Source of the DNA: a virus
Lineage: Duplodnaviria; Heunggongvirae; Uroviricota; Caudoviricetes
Virus record (IMG/VR): IMGVR_UViG_648276671_000010
Coordinates: 1-4,379 of that record
DNA length: 4,379 bases
Direction: 5' to 3' (one strand)
Each line of letters begins with the position of its first letter. Within the stretch, counting starts at the first letter, position 1. Shown piece by piece: positions 1,812 to 3,700 of this stretch. The notes under the pieces were generated by a model that searched no databases, was not told where the DNA came from, and saw only the letters and a program-made list of their open reading frames with translations. Position numbers and translations under genes: made by a program.

Positions 1812-2237
1812 TCAATGCACTGCCACAGCATTTCCTGCCGGGCCACCACGGTTCATCTGATTGAAACCGGCGATTGCCACTGCGACAAAATCATCAGCGT
1901 CTCTCACCAGTCGTTCCCGCGTCTCCACCAGCTCCCGAAAATAGGCTGAACTGTGGCTGCGCATTCGGGCCACCAGCAGAGGTGGCATTGCTTTTTCGAT
2001 CGCTGGTAACAACGCCTGAATTTTTTTAACCGCATCAGGGGTGTCTTTCTCCACCCAGCGGAAAATTTTCTGAGTATTGCGAGCCAGGGCTTCCGGATGG
2101 CTGTCGTCATACAGTTCCGGGAACGTCATTCCCAGCTCGAAATACGCTTTGGTAATTTTCGCAGCCGGTACTTTTTCGCCGTCCGGATGTGCCCAGGCAT
2201 TCATCGCCATGCGGATGTGCTCATGCTTGATTTTCAT
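1812..2237 (-). CDS. ydaT: YdaT-like protein, occupying the cII position of the switch
   Basis: 141-aa track ORF beginning MKIKHEHI. ATG at 2235-2237 overlaps the upstream cro-like stop in an ATGA arrangement (translational coupling); GGGAG SD 7 nt upstream. Family assignment from memory of Rac YdaT; needs blastp. Confidence 0.75.
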   Translation of the reverse strand: MKIKHEHIRMAMNAWAHPDGEKVPAAKITKAYFELGMTFPELYDDSHPEALARNTQKIFRWVEKDTPDAVKKIQALLPAIEKAMPPLLVARMRSHSSAYFRELVETRERLVRDADDFVAVAIAGFNQMNRGGPAGNAVAVH

Positions 2238-2497
2238 GAATCAACTCCCGCAGCTGGTTGTGTGTTAGCCTGATAGTCAACAGGTATGCCATCGGTTGGG
2301 TTGGGGTAAGTATTGCTATCAATCTCGTGCGGGGTCACTACCCACCCTGTTGCTTCACACCAGCGTAAAATTTTTTCCCCCGTAAGTTTCGCCCGTCCAG
2401 TAATGACATGGCTTACCATCCCTTGGGTTGCCCCAACAATTTCAGCAAACTTTTTCTGGGTTATACGGGAATGATGCAAATATTCTCCAAGCTTCAT
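2234..2497 (-). CDS. Cro-like HTH DNA-binding regulator (YdaS-like)
   Basis: Track ORF 2234..2509 (MRRTMKLGEYL...). The internal ATG at 2497 has a GAGG SD (complement of 2503-2506) at 5-nt spacing, whereas the 2509 ATG has none, so the start is placed at 2497 (87 aa). HTH-like motif ITQKKFAEIVGATQGMVSHVITG. First gene transcribed divergently from the repressor. Confidence 0.75.
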   Translation of the reverse strand: MKLGEYLHHSRITQKKFAEIVGATQGMVSHVITGRAKLTGEKILRWCEATGWVVTPHEIDSNTYPNPTDGIPVDYQANTQPAAGVDS

Positions 2498-2527: not shown

Positions 2528-2569
2528 TTAATAGCATTGTTATTTTTGAAAGTAAATAGCATCACTATT
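2528..2569 (-). promoter_or_regulatory. PR-like early promoter with two operator sites: site A 2530-2544, site B 2555-2569; -35 TTTACT (complement of 2551-2556), extended -10 TGcTATTAA (complement of 2528-2536)
   Basis: Read on the minus strand: AATAGTGATGCTATT (site B) and AATAACAATGCTATT (site A), centres 25 bp apart, are 7-1-7 inverted repeats sharing a perfect TGCTATT promoter-proximal half. A 17-bp spacer separates the -35 and -10. Predicted start near 2520, about 24 nt before the cro-like ATG. Confidence 0.6.
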
Positions 2570-2604
2570 TCAAAGAGATTAGTAATCTTATTAGAATTGA
2601 AGGT
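2568..2604 (+). promoter_or_regulatory. PRM-like repressor maintenance promoter: -10 TAGAAT 2592-2597, weak -35 near 2569-2574; transcript predicted to start at or next to the ATG (leaderless)
   Basis: TAGAAT ends 7 nt before the ATG at 2605, and no SD sits at usable spacing (AAGG is 1 nt from the ATG). The weak -35 abuts operator site B, whose centre is about -43 from the predicted start. Geometry parallels lambda PRM/OR2. Confidence 0.4.
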
Positions 2605-3104
2605 ATGAAAAGAAAACCCCTGTCAGAGATCGACCTACAAGCAGCCCAGAGACTGAAAGAAATCTGGACGACAAAAAAACTCAACTTGGGTTAACCCAAG
2701 AGCGTGCGGCAGAAATTCTGGGGTTTTCGACACAAGGGGCAGTAAGTCATTACCTAAATGGTCAGACACCTTTAAATCTAGAGGCTGTTATCAAGTTCGC
2801 TGGGTTGCTGCAAGTTCCGCCCGAGTCAATTAGACCAGATATGGCAGACTTGTTACGAATTGTAAGGATGTACCCCCAAGAACCGCAGCAGGATAATGTT
2901 GTCGCTTTACCCGCAGAGATGGAACAATCGGAAAACGAACTTCCGTTTAATATAGAACCTATAGAGCGAGATTTGATCCAGACGTTCAGGGCTTTCCCAA
3001 AAGAAGACAAAGAGAAAATGCTTAAGGAAATGAAGGAGAAAAAAGAATCAATTGAAGAAACCGTTGCGCGGTGGCTAGAGGCGCAAAAAGGTCGTCGCGC
3101 CTAA
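2605..3104 (+). pseudogene. cI-position prophage repressor (XRE/cI-type HTH, PaaR-like, no S24 peptidase domain), interrupted by a 1-nt frameshift in this sequence
   Basis: ATG at 2605 reads MKRKPLSEIDLQAAQRLKEIWTTKKLNLG then TAA at 2692-2694. The HTH continues in the -1 frame (LTQERAAEILGFSTQGAVSHYLNGQTPLNLEAVIKFAGLLQVPPESI...) to the TAA at 3102-3104. Restoring one base in GGGTTAACC gives a 166-aa protein whose N-terminus parallels lambda cI (KKxxLGLSQE). The first canonical start in the downstream frame is TTG 2805, after the HTH. Confidence 0.6.
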
Positions 3105-3121: not shown

Positions 3122-3313
3122 ATGAGTACAGCCCTTTCCCCGATAATTTCAGAATTTGAAACAATCGAACAAGAAAACAGCTATAACGAATGGTTACGCA
3201 CCAAAGTGGCAGCAAGCCTCGCAGACCCCTGTCCTGCAATTCCACATGACGAAGTAATGGCTGAAATGGAAAACCTTATTGCTCAAATAGCTTCGACGAA
3301 CAGGAGTGAGTAA
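3122..3313 (+). CDS. type II antitoxin (63 aa), PaaA-like partner of the ParE toxin
   Basis: GAGGAGG SD at 3108-3114, 7 nt before the ATG at 3122. Its stop overlaps the toxin start (TAATG at 3311-3315). Small acidic protein; the motif SEFETIEQENSYNEWLR matches my memory of PaaA2. Starts 17 nt after the repressor stop, so it is co-operonic with the repressor. Confidence 0.75.
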   Translation: MSTALSPIISEFETIEQENSYNEWLRTKVAASLADPCPAIPHDEVMAEMENLIAQIASTNRSE

Positions 3314-3603
3314 TGCTACCCATTTTATGGCTACCTTCTGCGCGTGATGATTTGCGTGAGATTGTGACCTATATTGCCAAAGAAAGCCCTCCCGCTGCAC
3401 GTAGACTAAAAATGCGCATTGAAACATCAGTTTTGTCACTAACTGAGCACCCTTACCTGTATCCACCAAGCGAAAGAGTTCCAGGCCTTCGTGAGATAGT
3501 GACCCATCCTAACTACATAATACTTTACCGAGTAACAGCATCTAACATCGAGATCGTAAATGTAGTTCACACACGAAGGCAGTATCCAAACAAAAGCTGT
3601 TAA
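3313..3603 (+). CDS. parE: type II toxin, ParE/RelE superfamily (ParE-like, 96 aa)
   Basis: AGGAG SD at 3302-3306. Typical ParE/RelE length and motifs (N-terminal LPILWLPSARDDLREIVTYIA; C-terminal GLREIV...YRV...IEIVNVVHTRR). Translationally coupled to the upstream antitoxin. Confidence 0.85.
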   Translation: MLPILWLPSARDDLREIVTYIAKESPPAARRLKMRIETSVLSLTEHPYLYPPSERVPGLREIVTHPNYIILYRVTASNIEIVNVVHTRRQYPNKSC

Positions 3604-3617
3604 TCATTCCTGCCAAC

Positions 3618-3639
3618 AACCACCTTTGGGTGGTTTTTT
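3618..3639 (+). terminator. intrinsic (rho-independent) terminator ending the repressor-antitoxin-toxin operon
   Basis: Stem AACCACC (3618-3624) pairs with GGTGGTT (3629-3635), loop TTTG, followed by a T-run to 3639. Lies 15 nt after the toxin stop. The reverse complement has no trailing T-run, so it is unidirectional. Confidence 0.6.
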
Positions 3640-3658: not shown

Positions 3659-3700
3659 AATAGCATTGCTATTTACACAACAAAATATCAATGCTATTGT
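3659..3700 (+). promoter_or_regulatory. PL-like early promoter with two operator sites: site C 3659-3673 (perfect AATAGCA-T-TGCTATT), site D 3684-3698 (AATATCA-A-TGCTATT); -35 TTTACA 3672-3677, extended -10 TGcTATTGT 3692-3700
   Basis: Same 15-bp inverted-repeat motif, same 25-bp centre spacing and same overlap with the -35/-10 as at PR. 17-bp spacer. An A-run (3650-3657) lies upstream. Predicted start near 3707. Confidence 0.6.

Follow-up and report, generated by a model that had tools for sequence, protein, structure and literature searches.

A predicted leaderless repressor message and lambda-like operator spacing in a prophage immunity region of the PaaR-PaaA-ParE family

The DNA analyzed here, a stretch of 4,379 nucleotides that we call the window, contains a lambdoid immunity region of the Rac/CP-933P type. 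Leftward from a 107-bp intergenic region run a Cro/YdaS-like gene, ydaT and an O-like gene; rightward run the repressor gene, a PaaA-like antitoxin gene, a ParE-like toxin gene, a terminator and an OL/PL analogue (Table 1). The divergent YdaS and YdaT genes gave matches to PF06254 and to phrog_163 and phrog_35, and both OL operators overlap PL. The PR analogue was assigned from its near-identity to PL and from the inverted repeat I1 of OR and OL, and it failed the criteria of our consensus scan (positions 2400-2750) at position 6 of its -10, which is A. Among 5,426 complete E. coli genomes, about 70 carry this immunity type; it also occurs in E. albertii and Shigella sonnei, with more distant forms in Salmonella. 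The best complete E. coli genomes are just 95-97% identical to the window. Searching Logan through ParE returned two contigs matching the window, both short, and a search for the O-like protein gave no entry on record. A scan of genome contigs with an alignment of PaaR sequences gave no confirmed relative, and the same alignment did find relatives in viral contigs. An Rfam search of the window returned no known RNA family.

Table 1. Features of the immunity region, in coordinates of the window (position 1 is its first nucleotide).
Feature	Positions	Strand	Basis or remark
Operator for the CII analogue YdaT, TTGATTTTCATGAATCAA, at the ydaS/ydaT junction	2227-2244		TTGATTN6AATCAA, 0 mismatches; marks PRE-type promoter region
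Cro/YdaS-like gene, divergent from the repressor	2234-2497	-	GAGG 6 nt before ATG 2497; 87 aa in RefSeq relatives
Predicted PR analogue: TTTACT (complement 2551-2556), 17 nt, TATTAA (complement 2528-2533)	2528-2556	-	Analogy with PL
Operator A (AATAGCATTGTTATT), OR1 analogue, overlaps PR -10, 25 bp from B	2530-2544		Motif scan and geometry
Operator B (AATAGCATCACTATT), OR2 analogue, overlaps PR -35	2555-2569		Motif scan and geometry
-35 hexamer TTCAAA (4/6), 17-nt spacer	2569-2574	+	Consensus scan; invariant in relatives
Possible weak third operator (ATTAGTAATCTTATT, 4 mismatches), OR3-equivalent position, tentative	2578-2592		P ~0.002
-10 hexamer TAGAAT, repressor maintenance promoter	2592-2597	+	Unchanged across 8 distinct type-1 intergenic sequences
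Start codon of the repressor, where transcription is predicted to begin (A2605, or possibly T2604)	2605-2607	+	Geometry, homology, +1 of a paralogue
Repressor gene, 166 aa if intact, interrupted in the window	2605-3104	+	RefSeq relatives annotated from the same ATG
A7 run shifting the repressor frame	2673-2679	+	A contig that is otherwise identical has A8; the E. coli relatives have GA7
PaaA2-family antitoxin gene, strong SD	3122-3313	+	PF21217 1e-20; PDB 3ZBE 6e-22; SD duplex -12.6 kcal/mol
ParE2-family toxin gene	3313-3603	+	PF05016; PDB 5CW7 chain B 2e-37
Intrinsic terminator closing the repressor-antitoxin-toxin operon	3618-3635	+	Predicted
OL/PL analogue, operators 3659-3673 (perfect palindrome) and 3684-3698	3659-3700	+	PL = TTTACA, 17 nt, TG-TATTGT, 3672-3700

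An earlier note on this DNA had singled out TAGAAT as the only good -10 upstream of the repressor ATG, behind a weak -35 and with no Shine-Dalgarno (SD) sequence at a usable distance. Hexamer and ATG, with 7 nt (TGAAGGT) between them, lie exactly where that note had placed them. Scanning positions 2400-2750 on both strands for promoter consensus gave one promoter-like site, TTCAAA-17-TAGAAT on the + strand (9/12), and TTCAAA is as weak a -35 (4/6) as TAGATA of the lambda PRM promoter. The -35 reaches 1-2 bp into the right edge of operator B, comparable to the lambda PRM -35 lying over OR2. Judging from these scores, an activator may not be required. The A of the ATG is the eighth nucleotide after the -10 and the seventh is T; alternatively, transcription could begin at G2602 or G2603, leaving a leader of 2-3 nt. 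As for ribosome binding, the best duplex with the anti-SD sequence upstream of the repressor ATG has -3.5 kcal/mol at a spacing of 0 nt, while the other genes of the window with correctly placed starts have duplexes of -5.6 to -12.6 kcal/mol spaced 3-8 nt from theirs. GAAGG (2599-2603) was ruled out as a functional SD by its 1-nt spacing, its weak duplex and its lack of conservation. A start codon further upstream was also rejected: inspection of the sequence between the upstream stop TAG 2557 and ATG 2605 found no in-frame ATG, GTG or TTG. We take ATG 2605 as the true start since the alignment of the protein to lambda cI starts at residue 2 and takes in the basic N-terminal arm (KRKPL/KKKPL).

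A single promoter match is no more than chance would give (0.9 expected in shuffles), and it is the comparison between loci that lifts the position of the promoter beyond chance. In six heteroimmune loci of the PaaR type, a -10 hexamer with 5/6 matches is separated by 6-7 nt from the first in-frame ATG downstream. The probability of this placement in shuffles is 0.03-0.04 per locus, and the product over the six loci is 2.7e-9, or about 5e-5 if just three lineages are taken as independent. Four more distant relatives (79%, 51%, 47% and 47% identity, Salmonella among them) have the same placement, so that 10/10 heteroimmune relatives keep a 5/6 hexamer and a gap of 6-7 nt. For two loci, L005 and L089, the database places the repressor start 12-15 nt too far downstream, and an upstream in-frame ATG sits exactly 6 nt past the -10. 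In the S. sonnei relative (L091) the pseudo-SD AAGG beside the ATG is gone (TGGATGT) and the 7-nt length is retained. Among relatives, the promoter hexamers and the operator arms are invariant, and the variable parts are the PR leader and the inner positions of site B. At the level of sequence, the comparison shows the -10 hexamer 6-7 nt before the ATG to be a rule across the repressor family. The proposal of a leaderless message is strongly supported by this gap, kept in every heteroimmune relative examined, by the lack of conservation of AAGG and by the start site of a paralogue, mapped on its ATG; the repressor mRNA probably begins at or beside its AUG.

The repressor itself joins a lambda-cI-like helix-turn-helix (HTH) N-terminal domain to a PaaR-type C-terminal domain. 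Residues 2-82 match the lambda cI structures 1LMB and 1RIO, and 3BDN as well, at E ~2e-9, and the last 44 residues are 50% identical to those of PaaR2, the regulator of prophage CP-933P, with no similarity between the two N-terminal parts. In an alignment of seven PaaR sequences, 20 columns are invariant, mostly C-terminal. A search for an S24 peptidase gave no match to PF00717, and the PaaR domain closes the protein, at residue 166. With its HTH present and S24 peptidase absent, the repressor by its domain content falls outside the autocleavable family of lambda cI and LexA, and RecA-mediated induction is not expected. When five relatives were aligned with lambda cI (26-34% identity), the position of lambda E34 was invariant and that of D38 was always E or D. 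The motif Q-E...A-E/D in helix 2 is common in HTH domains of the Xre type, so that retention of the acidic patch is weak evidence. In lambda, E34 and D38 belong to the patch that contacts region 4 of sigma (PMC1874639).

The earlier note missed one caveat: in the window, the repressor frame ends after 29 codons, at TAA 2692-2694, owing to the A7 run. If this frameshift were real, the switch would be dead in this genome, the repressor reduced to a 29-residue stub and the promoter a relic. A7 occurs in the window and also in an independent assembly of run SRR024214, and defective prophages of the Rac/CP-933P type are common (PMC8630535). The window and its two matching contigs nevertheless differ in homopolymer lengths alone. 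Such differences are the typical error pattern of 454 and Ion Torrent sequencing, and the A7 may be a homopolymer miscall. In L084, another two homopolymer changes would disrupt ydaT and the 3' end of the repressor gene; ERR4097512 has A8 and an intact frame, and 18/18 other type-1 loci are intact. Searches of IMG/VR and of the GTDB species representatives with a 33-nt pattern spanning the A7 allele gave no exact match. Moreover, loss of the repressor would derepress both PR and PL. We consider a dead switch rather unlikely, and it would concern one allele and not the design of the element. A -1 slip at the run would restore the exact TTKKTQ of the relatives, and a hairpin (2685-2700) lies downstream. 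Programmed -1 frameshifting or transcriptional slippage on A AAA AAA was set aside on two grounds: intact relatives have conserved residues encoded in the hairpin, and all differences between alleles are in homopolymer lengths.

The operators could be recognized from their repetition. The motif AATAGCANTGCTATT, with up to three mismatches, occurs four times in the window (at 2530, 2555, 3659 and 3684) against 0.18 expected, and 0/200 shuffles reached four. Site B had been placed about 43 bp upstream of the predicted start, in the position from which lambda cI bound at OR2 activates PRM, and the measurements agree: its center at 2562 is 43 bp from A2605, and the 7 bp that separate it from the -35 (counted from the upstream base) are exactly the distance of OR2 at PRM. 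Relative to the -35, the three operator centers lie at +32/+7/-16 here and at +31/+7/-16 in lambda. The distance from B to the ATG is 42-43 bp in the relatives L091, L088 and L089. The outer arms of B are invariant in relatives and its inner positions vary, one version being a perfect palindrome, AATAGCACTGCTATT. The candidate third operator, whose P value is the chance of four or fewer mismatches at a fixed position, extends over the spacer of PRM into the first base of its -10 and overlaps the palindrome AGATTAGTAATCT (2576-2588). It is poorly conserved, with three mismatches in the S. sonnei relative and five in most E. coli relatives.

The resemblance to lambda extends to several levels. 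The N-terminal domain is homologous from residue 2, basic arm included, with E34 and D38 kept acidic; the PRM promoters are alike, TAGATT standing 6 nt from the ATG in lambda and TAGAAT 7 nt from it in the window, each at the end of a 17-nt spacer behind a 4/6 -35; and downstream of the repressor gene comes a cargo operon, which is rexAB in lambda and paaA-parE in the window, with paired sites in OL. Unlike lambda cI, the repressor carries a PaaR-type oligomerization domain in place of the S24 autocleavage domain; the operators have an unrelated sequence, the third of them being weak or uncertain, and the role of CII is filled by YdaT, which is no homologue of lambda CII. Rac of E. coli K-12 (RacR/YdaS/YdaT) belongs, from published discussion, to the same lambdoid immunity class, with genes of the YdaS and YdaT families and a non-cleavable HTH repressor (PMC8630535, PMC9986795), but it lacks the PaaA/ParE cargo present here.

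The closest experimental reference is CP-933P, a cryptic prophage of E. coli O157:H7 (Sp12). There, 5' RACE placed the +1 of paaR2 on its start codon, and N-terminal sequencing of the product read MQKKE, in agreement with mass spectrometry (Jurenas et al. 2021, PMC8630535). Low PaaR2 lifted its own promoter, PRM933P, about 4-fold, an activation deduced from leaky expression rather than from titration, and a high dose repressed it, by up to 45-fold; PaaR2 represses PR and PL as well (PMC8630535). One locus in our comparison, L007, a genome copy from which the CP-933P promoter was read, reproduces the CP-933P paaR2 locus (MQKKE, a 97-bp intergenic region, GATAAT, 6 nt, ATG). CP-933P has its genes in the same order as the window: YdaT, a YdaS/Cro-like protein, divergent promoters, a regulator, PaaA, ParE, a terminator, OL/PL and DUF1391 (PMC8630535; Prolic-Kalinsek et al. 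2023, PMC9986795). Its PaaA and ParE are homologues of those in the window, the PaaR C-terminal 44 residues are alike to the degree given above, and the YdaT operator motif, which together with its location was defined by footprinting in CP-933P (PMC9986795), is exact. Both loci also have the -10 at 6-7 nt before the ATG and, some 20 bp upstream of the ATG, a palindrome that is strong or weak. In contrast, the N-terminal DNA-binding domain is unrelated by sequence to that of PaaR2, and the protein has 166 aa here against 123 aa. The operators here are 15-mers (AATAGCA-N-TGCTATT) in pairs 25 bp apart, whereas CP-933P has four evenly spaced 18-mers of the GTTTAGTAA type. Smaller differences are found in the intergenic region (107 vs 97 bp), the gap between -10 and ATG (7 vs 6 nt) and the -35 (4/6 vs 3/6). 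Judged by its N-terminal domain and operators, which are not PaaR2-like, the locus is a separate immunity specificity inside the PaaR-PaaA-ParE family. Activation by PaaR2 is not simply transferable to the repressor of the window because the resemblance is limited to the C-terminal 44 residues.

Our main reading, to which we give a probability of about 0.72, is that positions 2555-2607 are the maintenance promoter and the right-operator edge of a lambdoid prophage immunity switch whose leaderless repressor activates its own synthesis. From the sequence anatomy, statistics, conservation and homologies shown here, we infer where transcription starts, that PRM is activated and what the third site does. 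RNA polymerase with sigma-70 would use TTCAAA-17-TAGAAT and start at, or at most 1 nt from, the A of ATG 2605. The repressor-paaA-parE mRNA would have a first cistron with neither 5' leader nor SD, translated in the leaderless manner of lambda cI and CP-933P paaR2. Dimers of the repressor on operators A and B would block the divergent PR of the Cro/YdaS-like and YdaT genes, and the second, matching pair would block PL. The dimer on B, adjoining the PRM -35, would in turn stimulate PRM through the acidic patch in helix 2, with E33 and E37 (equivalent to lambda E34 and D38) touching region 4 of sigma. Positive autoregulation from site B, as the earlier note had suggested, is consistent with the OR2-like spacing, the cI homology, the acidic patch and the stimulation by PaaR2. 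At high concentration the repressor, or else the Cro-like protein, would probably fill the weak third site, which spans the spacer and -10 of PRM, and lower PRM activity.

Less probably, the message is leaderless with the repressor at site B only repressing. PRM would then be constitutive and moderately weak, autoregulation simply negative, and the position of B the product of packing divergent promoters into about 107 bp. Indeed, an operator over the PR -35 falls near -42 of PRM in any back-to-back layout of the same size, and the geometry may reflect this packing and not activation. The promoter (9/12, with a 4/6 -35) is better than the 2-3/6 of other PaaR types, B overlaps the -35 by 1-2 bp, and acidic residues at these positions of helix 2 are common among HTH_3 proteins generally. 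For PaaR2, self-repression reached 45-fold and the 4-fold activation came from leaky expression (PMC8630535). Yet the spacing to the -35 is identical to that of lambda, where activation is proven; the N-terminal domain is a true homologue of lambda cI, with both patch residues acidic in all relatives despite 26-34% identity to lambda; and the paralogue PaaR2 does stimulate at low dose (PMC8630535). On this balance a purely repressing site B appears unlikely, and we keep self-activation as part of our main reading.

During establishment, a second transcript, with a leader, would come from a YdaT-activated promoter of the PRE type near 2227-2244. The exact YdaT operator at these positions predicts such a long-leader transcript, so that an upstream 5' end would be compatible with a leaderless PRM transcript. 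That the repressor is made mainly from such a far-upstream start (of the PRE type or other), with TAGAAT incidental, could draw on this operator, on PRE933P being active with YdaT in CP-933P (PMC8630535, PMC9986795) and on one promoter-like match per 350 bp being the chance expectation, but it is highly improbable given a -10 that about ten heteroimmune lineages keep 6-7 nt upstream of the ATG, a leadered mRNA that would have no usable SD (AAGG is not conserved), the paralogue start mapped on its ATG (PMC8630535) and the coexistence of PRE and PRM in lambda, which makes a PRE transcript additional and not alternative.

The concept of a leaderless maintenance transcript is already established for lambda and for CP-933P PaaR2 (2021, PMC8630535), so the gain is incremental; what is new is an immunity type within a known family. 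Few E. coli genes are expected to have leaderless translation, and an uncharacterized immunity type now joins them; the family-wide rule of 6-7 nt can correct mis-annotated repressor starts such as those of L005 and L089. Tentatively, the repressor can be seen as a natural domain swap, in which a DNA-binding and activation domain of the lambda cI type, with the OR1/OR2/OR3-to-PRM spacing of lambda, is combined with a non-cleavable PaaR oligomerization domain and a toxin-antitoxin cargo. Leaderless initiation, kept in about ten heteroimmune lineages including some with HigBA or other cargo, would also be an obligatory, selected trait and not a peculiarity of lambda. The locus offers a natural test of the activation geometry of lambda PRM with a different, SOS-insensitive C-terminal domain. 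If PRM is activated through the same contact with region 4 of sigma, the activation architecture of lambda would travel with the N-terminal domain, independently of the induction mechanism.

The 4,379-bp window is a lambdoid prophage immunity region of the Rac/Qin/CP-933P type (see table), and its arrangement was found in 70 of 5,426 complete E. coli genomes, with an immunity core 92-97% identical. In these copies RefSeq annotates the repressor as a 166-aa 'helix-turn-helix domain-containing protein' that starts at the same ATG as the window's.

Genes and regulatory regions of the window
Feature	Position	Strand	Remarks
DUF977 gene	222-629	minus	
O-like replication gene	670-1746	minus	CGTGAC iteron-like repeats within
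YdaT/CII-like gene	1812-2237	minus	
Cro/YdaS-like gene	2234-2497	minus	
HTH repressor gene	start ATG 2605	plus	
PaaA2-family antitoxin gene	3122-3313	plus	PDB 3ZBE, 6e-22
ParE2-family toxin gene	3313-3603	plus	PDB 5CW7, 2e-37
Intrinsic terminator	3618-3635	plus	
OL/PL region	3659-3700	plus	
DUF1391 gene		plus	

The earlier note had proposed, from sequence alone, that the repressor message is leaderless and that its promoter (PRM) is activated from an upstream operator, as in lambda; on re-reading the sequence all its coordinates proved correct. TAGAAT (2592-2597) is separated from the ATG by seven bases (TGAAGGT) and belongs to the sole promoter-like site found by a consensus scan of 2400-2750 on either strand: TTCAAA (2569-2574), 17 nt, TAGAAT, identical to the consensus at 9 of 12 positions. 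About 0.9 such matches are expected by chance in this interval, so the hexamers by themselves are no proof. No in-frame ATG, GTG or TTG lies between the stop codon TAG at 2557 and the ATG. A usable Shine-Dalgarno sequence is indeed missing: among duplexes that the 20 nt before the ATG can form with the 16S 3' end, the strongest has -3.5 kcal/mol and directly borders the ATG, while correctly placed starts of neighbouring genes have spacings of 3-8 nt and energies of -5.6 to -12.6 kcal/mol.

The first 82 residues of the repressor resemble the N-terminal domain structures of lambda cI (1LMB, 1RIO, 3BDN; E about 2e-9), and since this homology begins at residue 2, basic arm included (KRKPL vs KKKPL), ATG 2605 is the true start. 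Similarity to PaaR2 is confined to the C-termini, where the repressor's final 44 residues show 50% identity, and an S24 peptidase domain was not found in the repressor. It is therefore, by C-terminal domain and context, a PaaR-family regulator with a lambda-type DNA-binding domain.

The toxin-antitoxin module is paired with several unrelated repressor N-terminal domains. An IMG/VR scan with an alignment of the linked repressor proteins yielded 75 loci that, together with the genome copies, form six immunity types. In all six, a hexamer that shares five of six bases with TATAAT is followed, after 6 or 7 nt, by the first in-frame ATG: TAGAAT at 7 nt in the window type, GATAAT at 6 nt in PaaR2 and its METKE variant, TAAAAT at 6 nt in two further types and TAAAAT at 7 nt in relative locus L043. 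The probability of such a placement is 0.03-0.04 per type in composition-matched shuffles, and the product over types is 2.7e-9 (~5e-5 counting only three lineages as independent). The -35 hexamers are poor in all six (2-4/6). A protein search and genomic context look-ups added further relatives of the window's N-terminal domain, from Shigella sonnei (79% identity in this domain; TAGAAT-7-ATG), Salmonella diarizonae (51%; TAAAAT-6-ATG) and two metagenomic contigs (47%; TAAAAT-6-ATG and TATGAT-6-ATG). The 7-nt stretch reads TGGATGT in S. sonnei: AAGG is gone, yet the length is kept. Eight distinct intergenic sequences of the window's own type differ in the PR leader and within the inner part of site B, but have identical PRM -35 and -10 hexamers and identical operator arms. 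In two relative loci, L005 (1058-1072) and L089 (1489-1500), the database start lies 12-15 nt 3' of an in-frame ATG that is exactly 6 nt past a -10 hexamer and regains the basic N-terminal arm, which suggests that these starts are mis-annotated.

The cargo 3' of the leaderless repressor differs between loci (L086 2112-2839; L006 680-1532; L049-L054): HigB/HigA stand where PaaA/ParE would be in S. diarizonae (L086), and some E. coli loci carry a tandem pair of PaaR-type genes, with no obvious separate promoter for the second.

Experiments are available for a paralogous switch, paaR2-paaA2-parE2 of CP-933P (Jurenas et al., 2021; PMC8630535). There, the PRM933P start was mapped by 5' RACE onto the paaR2 start codon, and His-tagged PaaR2 had the N-terminus MQKKE and the expected mass. 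Leaky PaaR2 raised PRM933P ~4-fold and lowered PR933P 2.5-fold, and induced PaaR2 or YdaS repressed PRM, PR and PL. A genome copy of this system (L007) shows MQKKE and a 97-bp intergenic region with GATAAT, 6 nt and ATG. Conservation of the -10/ATG distance and these experiments on the paralogue strongly support a leaderless start for the window's repressor mRNA.

The operator motif AATAGCANTGCTATT (≤3 mismatches) occurs at 2530, 2555, 3659 and 3684 (0.18 sites expected), as two pairs with 25-bp spacing within each. Using the operators annotated in J02459 and its sequence, we found site B (2555-2569; centre 2562) placed as lambda OR2, its centre at +7 bp from the upstream base of the PRM -35 in both and 43 vs 42 bp from the ATG, a 1-bp difference due to the -10-to-ATG gap (7 nt vs 6 nt). 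Site A (2530-2544) lies at +32 and 68 bp (OR1: +31 and 66 bp), and candidate site C (2578-2592) at -16 and 20 bp (OR3: -16 and 19 bp). In the J02459 feature table the cI span (37227-37940) is labelled 'rexb (exclusion;144)', a labelling slip and not biology, as both the coordinates and the translation belong to cI. Candidate C has 4 mismatches (chance at a fixed position ~0.002) in the window, 3 in S. sonnei and 5 in most E. coli relatives, and so is only tentatively a third operator. Overlapping it within the PRM spacer is a perfect 6-1-6 palindrome, AGATTAgTAATCT (2576-2588), a possible preferred target of the Cro/YdaS-like protein; YdaS of CP-933P binds PRM first, and a strong palindrome lies ~20 bp before the ATG there.

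In lambda, the OR2-bound dimer contacts R588, K593 and R596 of sigma-70 through an acidic patch made up of E34 and D38 (PMC1874639). The E34 position is invariant in five aligned relatives and the D38 position is E or D. This acidic helix pattern is common among Xre-type HTH domains, so we regard its retention simply as supportive. Activation of PRM by the repressor is plausible, given the lambda-identical spacing, the homologous N-terminal domain and the behaviour of the paralogue.

YdaT activates a PRE-type promoter in CP-933P (PMC8630535), and footprinting located its operator, TTGATTN6AATCAA, at the ydaS/ydaT junction (PMC9986795). The window has this operator with 0 mismatches at 2227-2244, where ydaS stops and ydaT starts, so a second, leadered repressor transcript is expected; the site implies a putative establishment promoter of PRE type.

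In the window the repressor frame, shifted by an A7 run (2673-2679), stops after 29 codons (TAA 2692-2694); at this run E. coli relatives read ACG-AAAAAAA and the window AC-AAAAAAA. Two short public contigs differ from the window, and from each other, only in homopolymer lengths: that from SRR024214 (L084) also has A7, and that from ERR4097512 (L085) has A8, which leaves the 166-aa frame intact. The run may reflect a real slippage mutation. A homopolymer miscall is a likely explanation, given this pattern and two extra length changes in L084 that would disrupt ydaT and the repressor 3' end. Slipping by -1 on A AAA AAA, 5 nt before a hairpin (2685-2700), would give back the protein sequence of the relatives exactly. 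Minus-strand positions 1-218 may hold another homopolymer frameshift: two ORFs, 99-206 and 4-102, are short and abut each other, a third frame resembles a genuine coiled-coil protein (VLDELEAKDKRIAELEAREVQLPAGYELRYGHPIN), and a T6 run lies at 107-112; this segment has no counterpart in the closest E. coli relatives. Inside the O-like gene, two clusters of (T)CGTGAC direct repeats (1301-1352 and 1571-1612) and a TCTGTA tandem (1271-1299) probably represent the replication origin of the prophage, like that within lambda O.

The observation made in the earlier note is thus confirmed and its interpretation supported. Leaderless, self-regulated repressor expression is already established for lambda and the PaaR family, so interest is modest: what is new is one further immunity type of the PaaR family, predicted from sequence.
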